From Podarcis vaucheri (taxonomy: Eukaryota): a stretch of 64,000 nt of DNA. The position numbers and the translations under genes were made by a program. The stretch lies in assembly GCA_965113315.1 (NCBI GenBank), contig OZ220369.1, one strand, 5' to 3'. The notes beneath the pieces are model-generated. The model ran no database searches. It saw nothing but the letters and a program-made list of their open reading frames with translations, and was not told where the DNA came from. Every line of letters starts with the position of its first letter. Positions within the stretch are counted from its first letter, which is position 1. Shown in pieces: positions 18,021 through 59,553 of the stretch.

Positions 18021-18751
18021 GTTTAAAATAACAGGGTTCTCTTCTTTAAACTGCATCCCCCCACAGACCTCTTAATTAAATGGAAAAAAAGATTAAAATG
18101 TAAAAAAAAGTTATTTACAAGCTTGATCATTACAGAGATGCCCTGCAGAAAGCAAAGCATCTGGGAGGAAAGACACCAGCTGGAGCATGCCAAACCTACA
18201 TTGCTGACGCAGAGCCAGTCAGTGGAAGGGTGGAGTTGGTGGGTGGGTGAGGGGGGAAAGCAAAAACTAAAATGCAATAAAAGTTTTACAACCCTCCTGA
18301 GTTCTGCATTTACATTTAAAAACCTCTATAGAGCAAAATGAGGCCAGAGGGCTTCAAGGAACGCGAAAGCAGATCCAGAGCAGTTAGTGTGGGCTCGAGT
18401 CCGGGCTTCCATCTTTTCCACGTTACGTGCAAAGGCTGTCCGTGGCCTGTCACTACAATGCAGTCCAGAGTTAACTGGATCCAGCGACCTGCAGGAGACC
18501 CCTGGGGACTCAAAAATATCCCCACGTTCCATGATCCGGTTATAGGCTAACATTAAACAGAGAGAGTTCTAGGCAAATCACTTTCTAACATCATTTGAAG
18601 TTTTGTTTCCCGAGTTGTTTGGTAAAATGGTCTAAAAATGATGCATTTCCCAAAGCCAAAAATAAGGTAAAAAGGAAAATAAAAATAAAAGGGATCGAGC
18701 CGCTTCAAAAGAGCCCAGGCCAGTTCAGTCAAGAGCATAACTCTTCCTCCA

Positions 18752-18933
18752 TCACCGGTCCATCATGCTAAGAATCATCTCTGGGGTGAGGTCTCCATTG
18801 GGTGCTTCCACCGCAGCTGGCTGAGCTCCTGCTGTAGCTGCTACAGTCTCTGCTTCAGGCTCCTTCTTGACTTCCACTATAATGTTTTCAATTGCACCAG
18901 TGTTCTGGTCTTCCACCTGAATGATTGCTGTTG
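18752..18933 (-). CDS. CTCF: CTCF last coding exon ([10 protein letters not shown]...ILSMMDR*)
   Basis: gatag|CA; canonical CTCF C-terminus [15 protein letters not shown] then TGA. Confidence 0.97.
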
Positions 18934-19399
18934 CTATCAAATAAGAACGGGGTAAAAGTCAGACTCTCTCTGGGGATACCACTTCACAGTATCTCAACAC
19001 AATAACCATAGCTAAGGCTGTGTATATGCTGCGATTCTCTGGCAGTGCAGTGTGTGGCGGAGAATTGTACAAACTCATAGCTGGACAACAGTGACTAGCT
19101 AAGGCCTATCTAATTTTAACAATTCCAAGAGTGATGGCAAAATTGGTCTCTGACCAATGTGGCTTCAAATTGGTATGTTTTTGATGGCTGCAGGGAGAGG
19201 GAAAATGTGTGTCAGGCTGAGCATGAATATACAGCTGAGTCCTGCCCATGGAATGCCATCACAGGAAATGTACTCTGACATGTATTACTCACACATCTTT
19301 AAGTTGCATTTGGAGAGAAAGAATAATTTTTTTTAGGCTGACTGCCTAAGGTTATAAAAATTCACAGTCATCATAGAAAGCTGACTTTTATCAAATCAG

Positions 19400-19580
19400 G
19401 CCATTGGTCCTTCTGACCCAGTCAGATGGGGCAAGGTATTCAATTATTATTATTACACTTACTGGCAGGGGCTGTCTAGGGTTTTGGAGCGGGGATTCAT
19501 TCCCCAGCCCTACTTGGAGATGTCAGCAACTGAACTGGGATCATCTGCATGCAAGGAATGTGCTGTTCACTGAGTTACGG
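19400..19580 (-). mobile_element. Squam3-like SINE
   Basis: Reverse tRNA-like head (...gcatgcaaggaatgtgctgttcactgagttac) and shared body. Confidence 0.5.
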
Positions 19581-20079
19581 TGTTTTTTCCTGTGGCTGCA
19601 CAAGCTTCTGAGAAGAGGTTTTCATTACCTCCTGAGATGGAATGTACGGCATCTTGGTTTCATAAATGTTTCTGTTCCAACCCCCGATTTCTGAAATTTC
19701 TAGAAATCTGAACAAGAGTTCAGCCATTAACAATACCAAGATGCTCATAAATATCCAATTCAGGGAGACTGACCAATTAGATTTGGTCATGCAAGTTCAA
19801 TCTTAGTTGAGCAGAGTGTTAAGAACTAGCCATCCTGACCCTACATGTGCAAATGCTTCACCAAGAATCTAGTATTTTGTGCGAATTCCCAAGACATTTG
19901 TGTACTCTGCCCCTCACAAGTTTCTAGACCTGAAAATATGTTAAGTGATGATATCCGATTTCCCACTGATTGCCAGTCATATTTGTCTCTATTATAATGC
20001 ACCTTGCAAAAGCTTGCAACCCCGCACCCCCCAAAAAACCTATGCACAATCTTCCTTTTTTCCATGGCCCTGGACTTAC

Positions 20080-20244
20080 GCTGGGGCTGTTTTGGTTGAT
20101 TGGCTTTGCCTGGCGGCCTTCCTCTTCGCTTCTTAGCCGGTGGTGGTGCTGGAACCACAGGTTCCACTTCCGGTTCAGCCTCTATTTCAACCGCCGTCTC
20201 CTCTTCTTCTTCATTATCATCCAATTCTGGCTCTGCATTTTCCT
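20080..20244 (-). CDS. CTCF: CTCF coding exon 9 (acidic region, AT-hook-like KRRGRP)
   Basis: aag|AG GAA AAT...CAG C|gtaagt, 165 nt, phase 1-1. Confidence 0.93.
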
Positions 20245-20831
20245 CTTCAATATTGAAAAAAAGGAAATTAAATCAGGGCATCTAACAATGAAAACAACAA
20301 AATGGGAACAGCTAATATGCTCCCCATAGGCAGTATTGCCATTTCAGGTTTTAATCAGGAATGAATGAAATGTAGAACTTTGAAGATGTCAGTACACCTC
20401 TCCACAAAGAAATGGGAGGGGAGGATTTTTGACTGTACATGTGTGCTGGGGGTGGGGTGGAAGCAATAAATTTCTTTTTATTAGCTATTCAGAATGCTCT
20501 TCAGTGGAATGAAGAAGCAGAATTTTGTTTTGTTTAATGGCTTCCCTATTAACTTTATCCTGACCTCCCCTTAAAATCTAAAATCTGCTTCAAAAGATTC
20601 CTGGTGCCTTTTGTCCATGTGTCTTCTCACTTCCACTCACTGAGCTGTCCTGTGACCACTATGAGCAAGTGTACAGATGCGTACACACTTAGCATCTGGT
20701 TTGAGTCTTCTGTATATTTATCTTGCAAAGAAGTGCCTTCCCCACTGAACTGCATATTAGAAATGACTCCCCTGCTTTGCACTTGGAGGCACCTTCCAGC
20801 ATCCCCCACCCTGACTTGGAACAGAACGGCA

Positions 20832-20890
20832 TTGCAAGGGGTTGGACTAGATGACACTTGGGTCCCTTCCAACTCTACAATTCTATGATC
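20832..20890 (+). mobile_element. CR1 LINE 3' terminus
   Basis: ggggttggactagatgac...ccttccaactctacaattctatga. Confidence 0.75.
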
Positions 20891-21288
20891 CTATATAGGC
20901 TGTACGTAAAACAGGTGATGAGCCAGCCCAAAGGGAGGGAAAAATATCACCTCTACTGCCCTTTCTTGGCAGCTTAACACTAACACACTCATTCACACCC
21001 AAGATTTAGACCTGTTGTGGTGTGCCAGGTGGTAGGCAAAACAAATTTGGAAGCCAAAAGCTTGGATGTTGCCATTATTAATTACATGTTGATACCGCCC
21101 TATACTCTATAGCTGCAAGAAAAATTGCAGCTAGTAGTGCTTAAGTGACCATTGGCAAGTTATTTGTTATGAGCGACATGCAAGGCTTGGAAACTATAGA
21201 GCTGCATGAGAATATAATGCAGAGACTTGAGCATATAAGCAAGGCGAGGATGTCACAGCTGATTCAGAGATAAGCTTACAGTTCTTAC

Positions 21289-21424
21289 CACTATCAGAGG
21301 AGTCCTCTTTCTTAGAGCGCATCTTTCTCTTTCGCCCACGTTTCCCCTTCTTGGGCTCCCCTCCATTTTCTCCTTCGACTCCATCAGGGCCTGTGCAGTT
21401 ATCTGCGTGTCTGGCCATGGTGTT
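21289..21424 (-). CDS. CTCF: CTCF coding exon 8 (end of ZF11, [18 protein letters not shown])
   Basis: aatcag|AAC...AGTG|gtaag, 136 nt. Confidence 0.97.
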
Positions 21425-21935
21425 CTGATTAGAAAAAGCCAGGTGAATGTTAAGACGTTGGCTGTATCGAATTAGAGCACTTGAATCCAAGCATGACACA
21501 CACACACCCCGATTTATCCCCCAAACGAAAAAAAAATGATCTTATTTGCCAAAACTGGGGCTGAGCCCCAACATCAGAGGTAAGCTGCGATGATGAGCCA
21601 AATTTTAATTGGTACACTTTACTTCTCCCAATAATCCCACCCAAAGAGAACATACAGACCAGCAATCGTATGCTTGACATAACTCCAAAGAGAGAACAGG
21701 AATCAGCAAGTGTATTTCGGTTTTGCAGCCCCTCCCATTACAAGTTACCATTTTGAAAAGGATACAAAACAAGCAAAATGCCGTATGGGAATGGCTTTTT
21801 CTGTTTGACCTCACCAAGGCAGTTAGCAATATAGCACATCAAGGAAGCTGGAAGATCTATTAGTGCTCAACTTATTCTCTCAGGCACCAGTCTTACGCCC
21901 TGCTTCATGCGGCAACCTTGCCCCCAATCACTTAC

Positions 21936-22118
21936 ACGGCGTGTGAATGTTTTGCCACACTTGGAGCAAACGAAGGCAGCTGGAACAAAGTTTGGATCGT
22001 GGTAGCGTTTGAAGTGCATGTCAAGCAGCTGCTTCTGGCGGAAGGTCTTATCGCAATGGCTACAGGCGTAAGGCTTTTCTCCAGTGTGGGTTCGCTTGTG
22101 CATAATCATGTGCCGTTC
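21936..22118 (-). CDS. CTCF: CTCF coding exon 7 (ZF9-11)
   Basis: ttctag|GAA...CGT|gtaag, 183 nt; [22 protein letters not shown]... Confidence 0.98.
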
Positions 22119-22164
22119 CTAGAAGGAACCAAGAACCAAGTCAGCAGGGGTGGGGGATAACTCT

Positions 22165-22290
22165 AGGGCAGGAGTAGGCAACCTGGTGCCCTCCAAATGT
22201 TCTTGGACCACAACTCTGATCAGCTGCAAACATGCTGATGCGAGTTGTAATTCAACATCTGGTGGGCACTGTGTCAGTCTACATTATCCC
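22165..22290. mobile_element. Short hAT-derived MITE
   Basis: ggagtaggcaacctggtgccctccaaatgtt...acatctggtgggcac. Confidence 0.6.
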
Positions 22291-22370
22291 ACTTTATTAT
22301 TTTGCATCCTCCCCCACCTGATCTGTGTGCCTCAACCGACCAGGGTGAGAACCACATTCTTAAACATTTA

Positions 22371-22634
<264 letters not shown>

Positions 22635-22637
22635 TTA

Positions 22638-22966
22638 CAGTGGTGCCTCGCAAGACGAAATTAATTCGTTCTGCGAGTTTTTTCGTCTAGCGAATTTTTC
22701 GTCTTGCGAAGCATGGTGTCAGAAAAGTTTTGGAAAAGCTTCAAAAATCACCAAAGTCTTCAAAAACCTCAAAAAAGGCTACCACACCGCGTTCTATGAG
22801 TTGCTCCTCGAAGTCAAGTCGCAACGGTTTTAAGAAAAAGGAAACAAACTTGCAAGACGTTTTCGTCTTGCGAAGCAAGCCCATAGGGAAATTTGTCTTG
22901 CGAAGCAGCTAAAAAACCGCAAAACCCTTTCGTCTAGCGAGTTTTTCGTCTTGCGGGGCACCACTG
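22638..22966. mobile_element. Tc1/mariner-type MITE
   Basis: TA|cagtggtgcctcgcaagacgaaa ... tttcgtcttgcggggcaccactg|TA. Confidence 0.9.
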
Positions 22967-23496
22967 TATATTAATGTTCAGCTGAATGGGCAAATTCCTG
23001 CCCTAAGATAAATATTTTAGCCCACATTGTCTAAGACTCCATGTCCTCTGTATTTGTTTTTCTGACTAGCATTGCTACTTTGTTTGAGCCTTCAAGGTAC
23101 GGTGGGATTAAAAATATAAATCTGTTATTGTACACATGGAATTTTAGAGTTCTGGAATCTGATATTTGCTAGGCTTATTATAGTCTTAAGCTCCCACTTT
23201 AGCAAGTAGTTATGTGGCCCTCAGAACCAAATAGAAAGAAAATCAGGCCCACAAAGACAATCAAGTAACTGCATTTATACACTGTATTACTTCTGAGGAG
23301 CAAAAAACAGCTTATATGTGATTTTCAGGCAATCTCTCAACAAGGCAACTTTTGCAGGGCCAGACCTGCATAGCTTTAGCAGCCTTCAGCCTGTTCTCTA
23401 GACTATCAAACTAATATTAGTTGACCAACCAACTAGCCTTTCCTCTGAGAAGTATGATCACCACCTCTTTTACTAGAATCTGGTACCTCAACCTCA

Positions 23497-23697
<201 letters not shown>

Positions 23698-24075
23698 TCA
23701 TTTGCGGGCAGTAAGCTATCAAAGGACCTGAGGGGTGGGCTTGGAGAGACAGCATCCCCTCAATCAAAGTCAAATTACGGGGCAAAGAATGCAAAGAAGA
23801 GAGATCTCTCAAATGTTGCATAGCAGATACAATGATATGTGGTTGAGTGCCAATATCTCCTTCTCTCCCAATTACAAAATATCCATCGCTCTTTGAAGCT
23901 GCTGTCAGGGAACTTCAAGTTTAGTGTTCAGTTAGAGGTTATTACACTTCCCTAACAGTTTGCAAAAAAGCAAGTACTGTACAAATTTTAAAAAAAGTCT
24001 GTAAGGAATCTCACTTCTTGAAATGCTGATCCAAGCACTGACAATGGTCATAGCAGCCTTTAAGAAAAGCCACTA

Positions 24076-24399
<324 letters not shown>

Positions 24400-24701
24400 T
24401 CACTGTCTTTTCACAAAAGAATCAGTGCTATTTTTACCTTTTGCATTTCTTGAATTGTAAGATGAGACATACAGAAAACAGAATGGCTATGGGGCTAAAA
24501 GCTTTATGGGAGCCAAACAGTTGCTTATGGCCTGCCAATGTCATTTTTGATATTTCCACTCTGGGCAACAGACCTCCCCTACAAAACCAGAAACTGCATT
24601 TTTTTTGGGGGGGGGGTTAGTTCCGGGGGCACCTGGCTATACATGTTTTTGCATTTACATGTGGACACCCATAACAGAACCCTTGCATAAGATGCAAGTT
24701 A

Positions 24702-25049
<348 letters not shown>

Positions 25050-26514
25050 TTAAAAAGGCTAAACAGATATTGGCTTCATCTGTAGGGAATAGGTTTGCCT
25101 TCTTAATTTAAAGGTGCATCAAAAATGGGCAAGAAAATCTCTATTTAAAAAGACTGATATTATTATTAAATACACTGTTGCTATCATGCTAAGGGTCCGA
25201 ATGCTTGAAAAAGCTAAGTATGGTACATGTGGTTAAGTAAGACTTATTTTCTATAGCATCCCAACTAGAAAAAAAACCCAAGCCCTACCACCCAATGACA
25301 TGGTAAGGAATGTGACTGTTCCACAGAGAAGCAATTGATGCAAGGCATTTTTATTTCAATTATGCTTCTGCTTTATTGGAAATTATGTTTTGGACTTTGT
25401 GGGGTGATCAAAATTATGCAGCTTGGTGTTAACAGTAATGAAGCCAGTAATTCTCAGTGTTTCAAAAGGAAGTTTCCAGCCCTCATGGGCAAAAAAAGGA
25501 AACTTCACAGTAGGACAAGGACTGGTTGGGACATCTGAAATGCTGAGGTGTCCAGATTGAAAAAGAATCCAGTCTGTCGCTTCAGTGTCAAATTCTTCCC
25601 CCATTCCTATGAGCCTCAACCTCTCTTCTGCAACCCCAAGCCTAGTGTTCAGTTAAGACACATTAGGATTCACTATAAAAATCCATTCAGGTCTTTTCGC
25701 ATATACTGGTATGAGTTCTGGCTAACAAAGTTCTACTCAGAGTATACCAAATGAAATTAAAGGATGTAATTCAGTCACATCTTTTAATTTCAATGGGTAT
25801 TCTCCAAGCAGAACTAACATTAAATACAGCTCTGTTTGCTTATTCAGTAGATTTAATCATGACACTTGCCTCTCATATCACAGAATCTAAAATTACTGGT
25901 AGACCAATATTAGCACAAGGATGGCTTGAGTCTGTAACTCCCACAAACCAAGAGGCAGGTGCCAGAAAAAATGCTTATGGGTTGGCAGCATCACCTAAAC
26001 CACAGATGGGAAACTTGCCTGAAGCAGTCCCATTCTTCCATCACATTAGAAACATTCTTCCTTGTTTTTCTTGGCTTTTTACAGTCTTTCCCCTCTTTTT
26101 ATATGCAGTGTCAGAAAAGCTGGAAGGGGCAGCATTTTATCTGATAAATATAAAACTTTTAAAAAACATTTTTCCTGGTCGTATGGCTCGGTGAAAGCCT
26201 GAGAACAAATTGCTAGATTTCTGGCATCTGCAGTGTGTGTTTTTGTTTGTTTGTTTGTATAGTCAGAAAGGAATTGCTTTCATTAGGTTTTTAAAACATT
26301 GGATATATTGGCCTGTTGTACTTAAAAATAATAATTCACTGCATACTTATTCATGCATCATCCTTTTACACCCAACAGCACTTACTCCTGAATAGACTTG
26401 CCTAAGTTTAGGGACTCTAGCATGAGGCAGTCACTGTGAAAATTTAAGCACGGTACCGTAATTCTCATTCTGGATCAATTAATCCAGAACCCTTGTGTCT
26501 GACTCCATCCATCA

Positions 26515-26859
<345 letters not shown>

Positions 26860-27277
26860 TCAAAGTCCCCACTTTGAGGCAGGATCCTCCTCATGTTTTT
26901 CTTCCACCCCACTTCCAATTTCAAGGCACCTATCCAAAGGGGACAAAGTATACCACATCAGATTAAATCAGGGAATAGCATTAATAAAACCAATAGAAGT
27001 AGATCAAACAAATTAATTAAGGAGGCAACTCCTGATCTGAGGGAAAACTAGATAATTCCTGAAATCCACCCATCACCCCCTGTATTTAAATCTTCATGGA
27101 AGGAAACACCAGATTCTTTTAAAAAGTGGGGACAAAAACCCTTTCTTGATCTCAACAGGCCACAATGAGGTATCAAAGACAGTCAAGTCTCCTATCAAAA
27201 CATATCTGGGTTTCAAGGCTGGCAAGGCTCTTTGCTCTAAGATGATGATGTATTCAGGAAGAGAGCAGTAATTCCTA

Positions 27278-28174
<897 letters not shown>

Positions 28175-31100
28175 TCAACAGCTTGCAAGAAATGGGGGGA
28201 CAGAGTCTCACACCTTAAGAAATCTGATCAGACATGAATGACACATTGCATTTGCTGAAAAAAGAAATGCTCAGAACAAAGACCCCTGCTCACAAATATT
28301 ATGGATACAACTCCTTACACACTCTTGATATAGGTCTGTAATGTGAAAAAAAGAGAAAGAATTCTAATTCTAACTCAGGATTTGGGGGACAAGATCAGGC
28401 TACAAGGATACATGCATTTTACACTTCTTTCCTCCTCCTGCATCGCATGAGTCAGATACAGTATTTCTGGGCTAATGCAAAGCTGCTTCTGAATTTTTTG
28501 TCCCTCCCAAAAAGTGTCAAAAAGATTGAGTCTCTGGGGACACCATGAAATCCCTCCACCATTACTTTCAGCAGTAGCCATTAGTCAAAAGTGAAAGGAA
28601 AAGGCAAGTTGCTCTGGCTGCTCCTGGAAATAAATGGTCTAGGTGTGATGTGATGTACCAAAATGGCACAGGCGAGGCAGCAACCCCAAAATAAGATGTC
28701 AGAAAAGCACAATCTCCAAATACTTTGTTTTGGATCAGCCAGCTTTTGCAACCATACCCTTCTTTACTGTGCTTATGTTGCTTTTCCCCAAGCAGGAAAA
28801 ATCAACTAAGTGGAAGGGAAACTGGAACATGTTCAGAATGTTGCGTGGATACACACCTAAAACTGAGTGCCTGGGACACTGCCAATACAAAGTAAATGGC
28901 TGCTGTGGAGGTGTCAATAGTTCACAGGAAGAGAACAGCAAAAAGGCTGACAACGTGGGCCAAAACAAAGAAGAGCCCACACAAATGTTGGTGGTTCAGT
29001 GCCACTGCAAAAGCAAACAGAAGACAGATGACATGTGAGGAAAGGCCCATCTGAGATCTGTTAAAATAAAAGCAGTATTTAAAAATCTTTAGCTTATTCT
29101 AACCCCAGAGGGTTGGAGTACCTAAGAACATTGAATGTTCTTTCTTTAAAAAGAGAGCGAAAGAAAAGTCTTTATCTGAACTGGAATTTGGAAGTCAATG
29201 TTTAGAGTTATTTTTTAATAAGACTACAGTAATCCTGCAAATAATTCTACGTACAGCATTCACTCATCTACCCACACTAGTAATTTGCTGCATAATGCTA
29301 ACATTAAAATTAAAGGAATGAACCAACCTCTTCCATTAAAAAAGCACAACTCTGGTGGTGCCATGAAAAAATCCCAGAGTTGAGCACCTGAAATTAATCC
29401 AGATGCAGACTTTAGGGATTAAATTACACCCGTGTACTTTCTGTTACAGAATTAACACAGGATTGTCCTTCCGGGACATTTTTGTCTGCATGGTAGTACA
29501 CAGTGCTCCCCAAGTTCAACGTGTCACCAGCGTGTTTTCTTTCTGTATACAAAAGGTGTACAGAAAGTACCTGGGACAACCACAAATTGTACTGATTTGC
29601 TAATGGGGTGCTTTATTGTCCCACTGGTAGTACAGTGATGTATTGGGATGAAAATGTTGCATGTTTTTTTCAAACCAAATGATCCAGGGAAGCAAACTTC
29701 TAGCAACACTTTGTTTCATTTTAGGCCATTCCAGTTCCCCACAATATATTGGAATAGAAAACCACACCTAAAACACTTACTATTGCTACTACATTTCTAT
29801 CCCTCCATGGAGCTCAAGGTTGTATATATGACTCTTCTCTCCATTTTATCCTGCACAGCAGGTGAGGCTAAAAAAAATCCTATGTTGATTAGCTTGGAGA
29901 GAAAACAACTGCATTCACTGAAAGGCAAGTAAGTATCTTCTGGAAGCAGAGTAAAAACCTGCTATTTTGAACCACTATTTAGTAGCTGGTGTTGAAGAAG
30001 GGATTATGACTTAACTTCTGTTTTGCTTTAAATATGTTAACTTGCTTAGGTGTTTAGCTCACATGCAAGGCATCACTATCCTGCACAGGATTACAATAGG
30101 CCCTGGGACCTATTCCATCTCTTTGAAAGTAACAAAAGTGAGGTCGATATAGAATGAGGATTGTCCTGATGAGTATACAAGGTATAAGGAATGTGTTCTA
30201 CCTTCTTCACACTTAACCTTTGGAAAACACTGCTCTTGTCCATGCACTTCACATTTCCTCCAACATAATAGATACTTTTAGAGACCCATGTGATTGTTGA
30301 TGTGGAACAGCAGCACCCAACATTTTGCAAAAATAATTTCAGCGTCAGTATAACTAAGAAACGGAAAATTGACAAAGCAATGCAAAAGAAACTGACATGC
30401 AATGAATCCCACTGGTTTTAAGTTAGTTTCCTGTTTTCTGCCAGCAGCTGTCTATCTCAGTATTACATCCGCCTGCATGACAGTTAACAGTGAGATTCAA
30501 CGCATGCGCTTAATGAGCTCTCCTGTCTCCCTGCCCAGAAGCTGACCACATGATTTGCAGTGTGGGTGGGTTGCTTTGCTTGTCAACACTGAGACAGCCT
30601 CACATCTCTTGCCTAAACTTCCCCACAAAATAAATCATTCCATATCCTAGCAGGCCAGCTAATGTGTCTGCATAGGAGGAAAGAGGGGGGAAATCCAGAA
30701 ATTAAAAGATCAGAAAAAAGAGAATATTTGGTTAGCTTGATGCTCTAAAAGTCACCTCTATAGGATTAAGTTTTGAGACAACCCAATGACTCACTTTCTG
30801 GTCAACTACATCAGGCCTGTTGCGCGCGTGTAACCCCTCCCTTTTAAAACAAAAGGAATAGTAGCATTGATGGAAAGGCCACAACATACTGTTCTTCAAC
30901 ACGCACCACAGCATTTAATTTGGGCATCAGTAAGTGGAAGCATGTGCAATTTGGGCTTCTACGGTTGTGAGGCTTTATAGGAGAACCAGCCCACTTAGAA
31001 TTTGCATAAAGGCATATTGCCACTTTAGTGTAGTAATTACATTTATGAACCATAAAATAGCTTTTACCCTTTTTATCCAAAATTAGTGAATTATTATGCA

Positions 31101-44219: not shown

Positions 44220-44317
44220 TCAGAACGCAGTGCTGGCCATGCTCCCCGGGGCAAAGATTCGGGGCAAACTGTCAAGAGACTCTTCTAGACGTCGATGAGC
44301 AGATTTCCCATCTTCTC
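44220..44317 (-). CDS. RIPOR1: RIPOR1 last coding exon (GEDGKSAHRRLEESLDSLPRIFAPGSMASTAF*)
   Basis: ttgcag|GA...TGA, 98 nt; conserved RIPOR1 C-terminus. Confidence 0.95.
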
Positions 44318-45377
44318 CTGCAAGCAGATAAAGCAATCAGCTGTTAATTAGGATATGGTTTGCCCCAGCCTTGCACATGTCTACAGAGTCAGACCATAAA
44401 ATTCCCCTGTCATCATCCTTGGCAACACACTGACCTGAAAACGGGTGATTCCCTCCCCCACCCAATTTCATAAAACTTCATTGCTTGGCTGCCTAAGGGT
44501 GATCCAACCAGCTGTGTGGCCATCTATAAGATTACACTTCCAAATTAATGTATGGTCAATATTGTTTGCTGATGATGGTCCATTCATATTTTCTTGAGTG
44601 TGAACCCAGTTCCCCAATCAAACAATGAAGACTGATGAGGCTATATGATTACTGACAAGAATTTACCCTTTGTAGGAATGGCCAGTTGATACATCTGAAG
44701 AGCTCATTTAGTAGCTTTTGAACACTGTTGGTTTCCAGGTGCCCTTTTCTGTCCTGAGTCAGTCATTTAACAATTGTCCTGCTTCCTCTGCATGTTCAAA
44801 TTGGCGCATGACTGCACTATTCTATTTGAATTTGCCCTTCATTTTGTACCTGTGCTGATCTTTGCTTGTTTGCAGTACTTTAGAACTTGTAAATACCCTC
44901 CGCAACAGGCATGCTGCTTTAAGCAGAACTTAAAAGGGAACATAAGAAGAGTCTGTCTGCTACAACAGGTCAATGACTCATCTAGCTCAGTATCTTGTTT
45001 TTACAGTGGCCAACCAGATGCCCACGAGAAGCTCCACAAGCAGGACCTGATTGCAAGAGGTCCCCCCATTCAGGCACCTGGATCGACACAGTTTTTGTGG
45101 CATTGCAACTGCTGACAATCCCCTCCCGCTGCACTTTGATGATCTGCTAGTGGGTCTGTGAAATGGGTTGTGTAACCCCAACAAAAAACCCTTTTAAATT
45201 ATTAAAAACTATTGTCCAGATTTCATTCCATTTTAGAAGATTTACAGGGTGCCGTGCCAGATCCTGTGGATCTCACCCCACTCCATAACAAATACAACCA
45301 GCTCTGTGCCAGTGCTGACTCCTGGGCTCCTAGTTTCTAGTGATAACGGTTGGTGTGTCAAAATAAAATAAAAAAGT

Positions 45378-45490: not shown

Positions 45491-47146
45491 GTGAGAAGGG
45501 TGGTGGGAATGGGAGATTGGTGTGTGTTCAAGCTTCCCCCCCTGAAACCTATCTTCCCAATCTGGGGCTTGCAGTTGCAGCATATGAACAGTAGGGGAAG
45601 CCAAGGGTGTAGGCAGAAGCTCTCAAGAGATGCTGTGAAGGATGTCCTGCTGCTCAGTGAAGGGTGTGCTTGGCCTTGTAACTGGCTAATGCAGGGATGG
45701 GGGCAAGAGGCCTTTACACCCACCAGTGGTAGCAGAAAACCCCAGGGTGCAATTCAAAGAAATATGCCCTATGACAAGAATGTTGTCATACTCGACAACA
45801 TAGACACCAACAGGCCATCATCCTAACCTTATAGTTAAACCCCTTTCAGCTCTCAGAAGTTAGTCGCCCATCACTAATAGAATGCAGGAGGAGCCTAAGT
45901 AGTGCGCCTTTGAGAAGCCCTTCATCTTCCAGGTGTTTCGAACTTCTTAAAAACAGAAGACACCTTTAGCTGGGAAGGCAGGTTTCATTTGGAAGAGATG
46001 AACTACACGCTTCTTGCTACCAGAAAGCATAGGGGCATTTTCAGTGCCAAGCCCCTGATCTAAAAGGCCTGTCTGGGTAGGAAAGTGGAACTTGCTTTGC
46101 ATGCAGAAGATCCCAGGGGTGAGTGCTTGCCATCTCTAGTGGAAAGATCAACAAGTAGGTGATGGGAAAACCACAGCCAGATACGGGAGAGCCACTGCCG
46201 CTCCAGAACAGACAATACTGGGCAAGATGGACAAGCAGTCTGACCTGGCAGAAGGCAACTTCCTATGTAATCTGGATCATAGCCCCTCAACAGGTGTGCC
46301 ATTCCCTTTGCAACAGTGACAAAGACATAGCCAGAACACAAGCGCACTAGGAGGATTGAGCTGAGACAAAAGACCTGACAAGATAAAGACCAACAGGGTC
46401 CAGGACAAGAGACACCAATAAAGCATGCAGCACAGTGGGAAGGGGGAAGAATGGACTGGCCAACACATCCCAACCTGTGCAGCTGCTGTCATGACCCGGA
46501 AGTCTAGTTAGCCAATCAGATGGTTCTCTCAGTGCCATCTAACAAAATGATAAACAACAACTGCTTAGTGCTTTCCACTCTCAGTGTTCCATATCAACTC
46601 TCACTAAGTGAGCAGCAATGTAGGGCCAAGAGGGTGCTCTGTCCTATGCTGTGGACACTAGCAAGAGATCAAGGAATAGATAGGGGGTATTTAAGAGCAT
46701 AAATCTATGGCCAAACAGGCAGGAGAAGTTCTGCCTAGCCATCTAGTATAGAGTGAGCTTCATTCCAGCACCACATGGAGCCAGACCCCACCCCGCAACA
46801 AGCCACAAGGCAGGAGTGGACAACCGGCAGGGTGGGCTGCATATAGCCTTTAGCCTGGTTTCCAAAGCCCTCTGCAACCTACTGGTTTAAATTTTTGGAA
46901 GAAGTGGTCTGTCTCTTTCTGAGTGGCCTGTTGAGTAGCAAGGGGGGGGGGGAGGGAGAAAGAATGAAAAAGGTAGCCCCACCCACCTCAGGCTCTGGCC
47001 CTGCACACTGCTGACTTTAGCCCCAATGGATTCCCCAGAGGGAATGTGTCCCTTGTCAACCACTGTCATAAAGGGAGCTGCCTGCCCTGCCCAGGTGAGA
47101 CGGGAGAGAACTATGTCTGAAAACAAGGGAAGGGAAGGGCACTCAC

Positions 47147-55590: not shown

Positions 55591-56292
55591 CAAGAGAATC
55601 TCCTCTAGGTGCTTGAGCTCCTGCTCCAAGGTCTGCAGCTCAGGGAACTGGCCTCGGTAGTCATCTAGAGCAGAGGCCAGTGAGTTGATGGCCTCCTCCA
55701 GCCCACAGTCCACAGGCTTGGGCTTTGGTGGCTCCAAGAGTCCCACTGGCTGAAGCTCCTTTGGGACCGGCAGGCTCAATGAAAGCTTGGGCTGTTCAAC
55801 CTCTGGGGCTTGGGAGGCTGTGTCCTCACTCCCTTCTACAGTGGGAGTGGCCCCATCAGGCTCAATCTCCTGTTCTCCAGCCTCTATGATCTGAGTGTCC
55901 AGCACTGAGCCTGCACTTTGGGGCAAGGAGTTCGTTTCCAGCGGAGGCAGGTCCCTGGGACTGGAGTCTCTGGGGACAGTGCACTCCTTGTCCTCTGCCA
56001 CTGGCAGGTCCACACTAGCCTCGCTGATCTGGCTAAGAGTCCGAGCATAGGGCACATGTCCGTTAGCCACAGCCACCTCCTCGCGAACGGCTGGTGGCTC
56101 TTTGTCCTCGGGTTGCGTGAAGGCAATTTCTATGGCAGGCGGAGTTGCCTGTACTGCAGGTTGCACAATAGGCCTGGGCAGTGTATGGCGTGCACTTCCA
56201 GACAGCTGTGGGCTAGAGGAATCGTCCGAAGACTCTGAAGAGATGGACCAGGCTGCCCCGTTCTCAAGCTCCTCCTGCTGCCGCAACATGTT
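55591..56292 (-). CDS. RIPOR1: RIPOR1 large central exon (NMLRQQEELENG...LEEILL)
   Basis: ttccag|AAC...TTG|gtgagt, 702 nt; SSESSDDSSSPQLSG and LDDYRGQFPELQ motifs. Confidence 0.96.
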
Positions 56293-57324: not shown

Positions 57325-57500
57325 AACATGGGAAGCCACCTCATGCTGAGTCAGACCACTAGTCCATCTGACTCGGTATTGTCTACACTAACTGGTAGCA
57401 TCTTGCCAGGGATAAGGGACATTCCCAGCTGTACCTGGAGCTGCAAGGAATTGAACCTGGTACATTCTATGGGCAAAGCATCTGAATTACTACTGAGCTA
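57325..57500 (-). mobile_element. Squam3-like SINE
   Basis: ggaagccacctcatgctgagtcagaccact...tattgtctacact...ggaattgaacctgg...actgagctac. Confidence 0.55.
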
Positions 57501-57513
57501 CAGCCTGTACGTA

Positions 57514-57516
<3 letters not shown>

Positions 57517-57556
<40 letters not shown>
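57517..57556. repeat. (CA)n microsatellite
   Basis: About 20 units, seen directly. Confidence 0.95.
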
Positions 57557-57557
<1 letters not shown>

Positions 57558-58128
57558 AGCTTGGGAGGCCTAGAGCAGGGAGGGGAAACCTGTCATCCTC
57601 CACATGTTCAACTCCCATTATAATTTACCATTTGCAATGCTGGCTGGGGATGATGAGAGTTGGAGTTCATCATCATCAACTGGAAGGTCAAAGGTTCCTC
57701 AAGTCCTGGCCTACAGGGAGGCAGCTCTTCCTCAGCCACCAAATCCACCAGAAGGCAGCCATATGATGAATATGGGCAGCACATAGAAGGCTGGTATATT
57801 ACAGAAGGCAAACTGGTGTGAGGAAGAAATCTAGTACTACAAAAAGCAGGAGACAAAAGCCTGTATGATCCACACCCTGCCTTCAGGGGCAGCAGCAAGT
57901 AAGCACACGATTGCCACAAAACACCACAATCTGGGAAGACAGGGGAAGTCCACTGCTCACTACTGCAAAGCGGCAGAGGGACGGGCAAGATTCTGCAGTC
58001 AATCCACTTGCCTTATTCACAGCTCTGATTCAGGCCTTGAAATAGGAACCACAGACTAGCATACGGGAGACAGAGCACAGCTACGTCTACATCAGGTGAC
58101 TAGGCTAAGCTACAGGGCCAGCACTTAC

Positions 58129-58272
58129 ACAGCCCCGAGGTGCCCTTGTGCCGAGCTGCACTGAGGAGACGTCGCTGCATGAGCAGCTCCGCGGCAGCCT
58201 CTCTAGGAAAGTCTCCCGGAAGATGTCCAACAAGGCCCACCTGTGCTTGTGGGGAGCCTCCCGTGGCAGGCT
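58129..58272 (-). CDS. RIPOR1: Putative RIPOR1 cassette exon (48 aa: SLPREAPHKHRWALLDIFRETFLERLPRSCSCSDVSSVQLGTRAPRGC)
   Basis: ctgac branch point + polypyrimidine tract + taag|AGC...TGT|gtaagt; 144 nt, phase 0-0, open frame, locally CpG-rich. Confidence 0.7.
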
Positions 58273-58399
58273 CTTAAGCGGAGAAAGAGGCAACGGTCAG
58301 CACCAAGGGCTCAGCTCCATTACAACATGAGACTCACTTGCCTTACAGACAATCTCTCTGGCAATCAGGGCCACTCTGCTTCCCATAACTGATCAATCT

Positions 58400-58640
58400 G
58401 CCAGTGTGGGGGTACTGGTTAGAGTCTCAGACTGGGACCTGAAAGACCTGGGTTCCAATCCCCGCCCAACCATGATGCTCGCTGGGTGACCTTGGGCAGA
58501 TCACTGCATCTCAGCCTAACTTGCCTCACAGGGTTCTTGTGGGGATTAAATGAGGAGGGAGAGAATGATGCACACCACCTTGAGAGCTCCTTGGAGGAAA
58601 TGCTGGGATATACCGGTAAATGCATTTAAAAAATAAATAA
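58400..58640 (+). mobile_element. MIR/CORE-like SINE
   Basis: ggttagagt...ctgggttccaatccc...gtgaccttgggcagatcact...cctcacagggtt...taaataaa tail. Confidence 0.7.
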
Positions 58641-59035: not shown

Positions 59036-59165
59036 ATAAAAAGCCTGTTCGCGCATAGATGGTGTGTCAGGTGGGCTCTGGTTGTACGTGGAAAATCTCT
59101 TGTTGACTGTAGATGTCTTTGTCACAGTGCTAGCAGATGATGGTTGGTCCTCTTTGTCAAAGGGG
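59036..59165 (-). CDS. RIPOR1: RIPOR1 exon (PFDKEDQ...PPDTPSMREQAFY)
   Basis: caccag|C...TAT|gtgagt, 130 nt. Confidence 0.96.
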
Positions 59166-59553
59166 CTGGTGAAAAGAAAGCAGAATGCTCAGAGAGAAAA
59201 ATGAACCACCCCTCCTGTACACTGATGTAAGAAGAGAAAGGGAGGGTCACACATTATGAAATCCTCTTGGGGAGTCACAATTCAGAGCAGCCTTCCAGAA
59301 GTTTTGGACCACAGATCGCGTTGGTCCCAGTCAGCACGCTATACTTGCCATGGGCTGTTGGGAGTTGTAGTTCAAAACACCCGGAGGGCACTAAGCTGGG
59401 GAAGGAGGATCTATAGTACCATGGTCCCAGTTCCCTCACTTATCAGGCCCCTTCCCTTCAGGTTCTGTAAGATCACAACCTTCCTCACCCAAGAGCATTT
59501 CTCACACAGCTCCACAACAGAGAAACTCAATAAGCCTCAAGAGAATAACTCAC

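Follow-up and report, generated by a model that had tools for sequence, protein, structure and literature searches.

The exon within the RIPOR1 locus

The window, i.e. the whole 64,000-nucleotide stretch of Podarcis vaucheri DNA considered here, contains most of the RIPOR1 (FAM65A) gene, with its exons on the minus strand (table 1). Downstream of it, on the same strand and at about positions 18700-28200, lie the coding exons of what is presumably CTCF, a name assigned from the encoded peptides. For RIPOR1, 233 of the 234 residues encoded by the large exon at 56292-55591 are identical to those of a protein named Podarcis muralis RIPOR1. In a Podarcis lilfordi model, the last exon is placed at 44223-44327 (minus strand) instead of near position 46539, a possible alternative C-terminus.

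The intron between positions 59036 and 56292 is 2743 nt long, both flanking junctions are in phase 0, and it harbours an open segment of 144 nt. An earlier note on this DNA, made from the sequence alone, had described the segment as an in-frame cassette exon, and its coordinates, the CTGAC element, the pyrimidine tract, the AG, the GTAAGT donor and the 0-0 phase all match the sequence. The excess of CpG over the flanks that it reported was also borne out, with eight CpG (and a GC content of 0.65) in the exon as compared with 0-4 CpG in non-overlapping 144-nt windows of the intron. The encoded peptide had been quoted correctly for 41 of its 48 residues, with omission of the final seven (TRAPRGC). 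Owing to its length, its 0-0 phase and the lack of stop codons, the reading frame is preserved with or without the segment, and a poison (decay-triggering) exon is ruled out because the segment is open and in frame. Eight frame-preserving candidates of the AG..GT[AG]AG type are found in the intron, and the pyrimidine tract of this exon is the best among them (17/20). Its acceptor is AAG, in contrast to the CAG or TAG of all the other RIPOR1 coding acceptors that were located (18 of 18 within the window). No RBFOX site was found within 300 nt on either side of the exon, nor was there a QKI site for RIPOR1; the words of other splicing factors near the exon are too frequent for interpretation.

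Table 1. Features of the window around the RIPOR1 cassette exon, and the RIPOR2 counterpart in the same genome.
Feature	Position	Strand	Remarks
Window	G000:C26:50344001-50408000		carries CTCF and most of RIPOR1 (RIPOR1 on the minus strand)
Upstream RIPOR1 exon	59036..59165	-	ends ..REQAFY near the end of the PL48/FAM65 domain; donor GTGAGT, phase 0
Branch-point-like CTGAC	58296..58300	-	A at -25 from the exon; identified by sequence, function putative
Pyrimidine tract and AAG acceptor	58273..58293	-	suboptimal -3 base; AG at 58274-58273
Cassette exon	58129..58272	-	144 nt, 48 codons, phase 0-0, single copy
Conserved core 1, W-x-L-L-D-x-F-R-[DE]-T-x-x-x-x-L	58195..58239	-	residues 12-26, predicted one-sided hydrophobic helix
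Conserved core 2, S-C-S-C-S-D	58171..58188	-	residues 29-34; RIPOR2 counterpart S-R-S-F-S-D
Donor GTAAGT	58123..58128	-	identified by sequence
Downstream large RIPOR1 exon	55591..56292	-	starts NMLRQQ..; phase-0 acceptor
RIPOR2 cassette exon	L006:8390-8536	-	147 nt, phase 0-0, between the ..DHSFF exon and a large exon; AAG acceptor

Portions of the intron near 58510-58565 and 57360-57660 match repeats in RNA data, which might suggest a chance open frame or a new exon of repeat origin. This explanation is extremely improbable, however, as the exon with its flanks is single copy and lies outside those repeats, and as it has orthologues as far as fish and a paralogue in RIPOR2. Derivation from a transposable element is ruled out by the finding of only one genome match for positions 58060-58340. 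By taking into account also the comparisons described below, we are nearly certain that the RIPOR1 segment is a real optional exon in vertebrates.

Orthologous exons and the lacertid transcripts

A search with the peptide identified one longer protein, a RIPOR1 model of Varanus komodoensis, with a 48-residue insert placed exactly between QAFY and NMLR. A further search with the Varanus insert region yielded 1228 proteins; an insert was present at the same junction in 100 of the best 120, the 20 without it being all from lepidosaurs, but this ranking favours the carriers because the query region held the insert. Carriers among the matches listed include the monitor lizard, snakes, birds, frogs, lungfish, bichir, sturgeons and many teleosts, and the inserts of the annotated isoforms range from 38 to 61 residues, 48 being the commonest length. 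A hidden Markov model (HMM) built from 79 distinct orthologous RIPOR1 inserts recovered the exon of the window with an E value of 5.5e-25 among 6916 open reading frames (ORFs). Thus, the exon is neither hidden nor a peculiarity retained in lizards, as the earlier note had it, but is annotated across bony vertebrates.

The junction and the W-x-LLD-x-FR and S-C-S-C cores are shared with annotated insert-containing isoforms of RIPOR1 (FAM65A) such as those of Danio (XP_009291854.1), Crotalus tigris (XP_039183563.1), Corvus hawaiiensis (XP_048172221.1) and Polypterus (XP_039618964.1), and skipped forms are modelled in several species, with the limit that all these isoforms are predicted computational models. 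Namely, in C. tigris isoforms X1-X4 carry the insert and X5-X6 do not; in Danio X1-X3 carry it, and X4-X6 as well as the NP_ record are without it; one insert-less isoform each is found in Polypterus, Protopterus and Bufo gargarizans. Among the matches listed, the insert is present in all 15 crow models, and it is missing, unlike in the annotated carriers, from all 11 lacertid ones (15 were listed from a 47-member cluster, four being unrelated proteins). It is likewise found in none of the 13 gecko models, none of the four other Varanus models and none of the iguanian RIPOR1 models among the matches listed. Mammals do not appear among the best 120 of the 1228 matches, one marsupial isoform X1 being without the insert; their absence does not imply loss because turtles, crocodilians and sharks are also missing from the best 120, and loss of the exon from mammalian RIPOR1 is a possibility.

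Two annotated proteins deserve a separate mention. A Manacus protein (P0115) bears the source name FAM65B, yet it is RIPOR1 by sequence and contains the RIPOR1 cassette. In a cassette-less model of a grouper RIPOR1-like protein (P0312), which is a fish duplicate, residues 419-428 are identical in nine of ten positions to the S-C-S-C core; this stretch is 121 residues downstream of the slot, is absent from the related P0352 and may be due to chance in a Ser-rich region.

The identity between the P. vaucheri exon and its orthologues was compared with the identity found over a stretch of 100 residues in the next exon. The values for the cassette and for the next-exon stretch, respectively, are 38/48 residues and 75% with Varanus, 34/48 and 75% with the sea krait, 25/48 and 52% with the crow, 20/48 and 41% with the toad, 28/48 and 42% with the lungfish, 24/48 and 40% with the bichir, and 23/48 and 33% with the zebrafish. 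Conservation is higher still in the upstream exon. The cassette being about as similar as the next-exon stretch, or more so, fits selection on the protein, and the sequence comparisons show an optional exon kept intact under long-term constraint.

With respect to the transcripts, the joint between 56292 and 59036, which corresponds to skipping of the exon, was present in six of six contig runs from five studies of close relatives; these are presumed to derive from RNA, their joints being spliced, and two of the runs share one sample. Skipping is the main form seen in lacertid RNA contigs. The junctions 59036->58272 and 58129->56292, which the earlier note had proposed as a check, were not seen in eight runs from close relatives (six contig runs and two raw-read ones), where the only joint was that of skipping. 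In the two raw single-cell runs, only 43 and 34 reads were placed, none of them over the exon; contigs lose rare variants, the tissues of origin are unspecified, and missing cover of the exon was not counted as evidence. A contig of low depth (58086-58465, X3) runs through the exon without splicing; the exon within it is free of indels, and we take the contig for pre-mRNA or DNA. A relative's contig contains a 12-nt intron insertion at position 58352, 80 nt 5' of the exon and outside the branch point. Repeat fragments of the RIPOR1 introns (58510-58565, 57360-57660 and 59352-59390) attract reads from elsewhere.

The RNA evidence of skipping alone, the weak acceptor and the absence of the exon from lacertid, gecko and iguanian models among the matches listed raise the question of whether the exon, while functional in fish, frogs, birds and some snakes, has become a silenced relic in lacertids and geckos. 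We regard this as unlikely: neither the frame nor the two splice sites nor any core residue is damaged, identity to the snake and the monitor lizard is as high as 71-79%, and the contig of a relative crosses the exon with no indel. Furthermore, rare variants drop out of contigs, and those at hand come from unspecified tissues. There is a good likelihood that the exon is still used in this lizard. It may be skipped by default owing to the weak AAG acceptor and is probably included in some tissues only, lacertids being among the animals in which this would occur.

The RIPOR2 counterpart and the age of the exon

The RIPOR2 (FAM65B) and RIPOR3 loci were found in the same genome, and RIPOR2 also contains a cassette exon. 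Like that of RIPOR1, it occupies the slot after the PL48 domain, has a 0-0 phase and an AAG acceptor, and is of similar size (147 as opposed to 144 nt), 13 of 48 residues being identical between the two. The HMM of the RIPOR1 inserts recovered the RIPOR2 exon with an E value of 3.5e-5 and, reciprocally, an HMM of RIPOR2 inserts recovered the exon of the window with an E value of 7.2e-6, in both cases as the best non-self match of 6916 ORFs; the latter model was built from 13 distinct inserts, namely those that could be excised by anchors from 78 proteins. Direct comparison of the RIPOR1 and RIPOR2 inserts with hhalign gave a probability of 87.7 and an E value of 3.4e-6. The likeness to a RIPOR2 exon, which had been proposed by eye, is therefore confirmed by slot, phase and the reciprocal HMM matches. 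A second match of the peptide in the genome (L002, E 3.2) was set aside as due to chance, the HMM giving an E value of 0.6 and no other RIPOR match being present at that locus.

Isoform models with and without the RIPOR2 exon are found in Anolis, Pogona, Xenopus, Ascaphus, Pleurodeles and the shark Heptranchias; its product is 49 residues long in the lizards, the amphibians and the shark. The accessible part of a preprint mentions a Ripor2 cDNA from mouse cochlea 'without exon 13' (bioRxiv 10.1101/2019.12.20.884726), and from the exon order this exon 13 is probably the RIPOR2 cassette. The lizard RIPOR2 cassette shows two peculiar replacements: Pro stands at a helix position that is otherwise always Ala, and Leu replaces the invariant Pro that follows the RxRxxS site.

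Being homologous to a RIPOR2 exon in the same slot, the RIPOR1 exon should be older than the duplication that generated RIPOR1 and RIPOR2, and the earlier note's proposal of a pre-duplication origin is supported on this ground. No homologous exon was detected in the slot of RIPOR3 (best E 0.13, 122 ORFs) or in 30 kb of its locus. In a tree of 31 chosen proteins (midpoint root, with the eight deep homologues falling outside), RIPOR2 and RIPOR3 were grouped together (100/99), and cyclostome genes were placed on both sides of the split between RIPOR1 and RIPOR2/3 (96/90 and 98/94), the position of the hagfish gene being unsure due to its long branch. If the cyclostome genes do straddle the split, the exon would predate an early duplication and would have been lost by RIPOR3. 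No such segment was found in the models of hagfish, lamprey and the deeper homologues; models can omit optional exons. The eight deep homologues (P0319, P0321, P0323, P0326, P0328, P0333, P0338 and P0339) are full-length RIPOR homologues that fall outside the clade formed by vertebrate RIPOR1-3 and the cyclostome proteins, in contrast with the description of RIPORs as vertebrate-only in the available portion of a review (PMC8741841).

Conserved frame-preserving cassette exons that both members of a duplicated gene pair have retained form a general class. The RIPOR pair resembles it in the symmetric phase, the weak acceptor, the position in a disordered linker that borders on a domain and the short conserved motif, and does not differ from it in kind; its peculiarity is that the chemistry of the motif is swapped between the paralogues.

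The encoded module and its possible roles

The Pfam PL48 domain spans residues 17-362 of a snake RIPOR1 (P0003), in which the insert starts at residue 361; thus, the insert sits in the linker just after this domain. The 48-residue peptide matches neither a Pfam family nor a solved structure. The AlphaFold model of the snake protein shows a helix (residues 374-385) over the LLD..F..L core, with a pLDDT of only about 30, and the hydrophobic moment of the helix (0.42-0.45) is moderate, other windows of the same peptide having higher values. In 27 of the 79 inserts (from spiny-rayed fish and their kin), four residues inside the helix are missing, a gap of about one helical turn, so that the helix register would be kept. 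The columns of core 1 are conserved in 75 (W), 70 (L), 73 (L), 71 (D), 72 (F), 75 (R), 72 (T) and 71 (L) of the 79 RIPOR1 inserts, and those of core 2 in 69 (S), 73 (C), 70 (S), 77 (C) and 78 (D). The CxC pair is present in 71 of the 79, and at least one core Cys in all of them, as opposed to no Cys in any of the 13 RIPOR2 inserts. In RIPOR2, R-R-S-R-S-F-S-D, with its RxRxxS site, is invariant; RIPOR1 instead shows S-C-S-C-[SGN]-D and lacks a conserved Arg. The lizard RIPOR2 codons at the positions equivalent to the cysteines (CGT and TTT) are each one base away from a Cys codon, whichever way the change went.

The earlier note had seen in core 2 a basophilic phosphorylation or 14-3-3 site providing RIPOR1 with an isoform-specific switch, with the cysteines as incidental substitutions. 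The lizard exon does contain R-x-x-S (R28..S31), three Ser and the Asp are common with RIPOR2, where RxRxxS occurs in 13 of 13 inserts, and both RIPOR1 and RIPOR2 bind 14-3-3 according to the consulted sections of PMC5201024 and PMC8741841. However, RxRxxS is found in none of the 79 RIPOR1 inserts, any RxxS in the core in only nine and an Arg before SCSC in eight, and few positions are as well conserved as the two cysteines, so that neither the proposed site in RIPOR1 nor the view of the cysteines as incidental is supported. The RIPOR2 isoform known as isoform 2 is assumed here to lack the cassette. It is on this short isoform that the RIPOR2 phosphosites were mapped, as stated in part of PMC6141708, and these overlap with the serines (21, 37, 341, 523 and 535) given in the portion of PMC8741841 at hand; moreover, the binding of 14-3-3 to FAM65A is described as dependent on HR1 and RHO (PMC5201024, in part). 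A switch of this type in RIPOR1 is, on the whole, improbable.

A different possibility, which we regard as real though rather doubtful, is that the tissue-restricted cassette is a protein-binding motif, the helix docking on a partner or on the RIPOR N-terminal domain and the cysteines belonging to the interface or to a metal site, with no lipid involved. The L-D..F..L helix residues and the S-x-S-x-S-D are common to RIPOR1 and RIPOR2, so that the ancestral function cannot need the cysteines. We know of no docking partner for the RIPOR1 insert. In the part of PMC6141708 available, the longer isoform 1 of RIPOR2 is reported to bind RhoA more weakly than isoform 2, which would agree with docking, although the isoforms may differ elsewhere. 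Docking alone, on the other hand, leaves unexplained why two cysteines became fixed in RIPOR1 at exactly the positions that hold Arg and Phe in RIPOR2.

Pairs of cysteines next to a helix that is hydrophobic or basic typically mark sites of S-acylation. The exon has conserved cysteines beside a hydrophobic/basic stretch in a cytosolic context, as expected of such sites, this being a permissive pattern rather than a strict motif. Hence our tentative preference, held at somewhat below an even chance, for membrane anchoring of RIPOR1 by the cysteines of the exon. Inclusion of the exon would add a 48-residue module consisting of a predicted one-sided helix followed by the conserved Cys-x-Cys pair, which may be S-acylated in RIPOR1, while its RIPOR2 counterpart may target membranes through basic residues and the RxRxxS phosphosite. 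For RIPOR2, the location at the membrane or in the cytosol is described as regulated by phosphorylation, the basis of the anchor being called unclear, in the sections of PMC6141708 consulted. Against the anchor speak the very low confidence of the predicted helix and its moderate hydrophobic moment, and the conserved cysteines could equally serve in metal binding, redox sensing or a protein-binding motif. A broader extension of the anchoring proposal, which is unlikely to hold in full, sees in the exon a switchable membrane module already present before the first vertebrate genome duplication, which became an S-acyl anchor in RIPOR1 and a basic patch released by phosphorylation in RIPOR2, was lost from RIPOR3 and may have been lost from mammalian RIPOR1.

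In the literature searched, no paper on a RIPOR1/FAM65A cassette exon or on FAM65A palmitoylation was found; the event may already figure in the splicing tables of supplements or in splicing databases. Since automated annotation includes the exon in many vertebrates, its existence is no discovery; it is already annotated outside lacertids and apparently undescribed in print. It settles no long-standing question, but it corrects the lacertid RIPOR1 gene model and draws attention to a change of isoform, so far unstudied, in proteins that are tied to cell polarity and Golgi reorientation and are linked, via RIPOR2, to hearing loss and immune-cell migration. The presence of CxC or RxRxxS on one and the same helix offers a simple test of RIPOR membrane targeting, which the accessible text of PMC6141708 calls unclear. 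If the broader proposal, with loss of the exon from mammalian RIPOR1, is true, vertebrates other than mammals would possess a RIPOR1 isoform anchored to membranes, one that has gone unseen in human cell biology.
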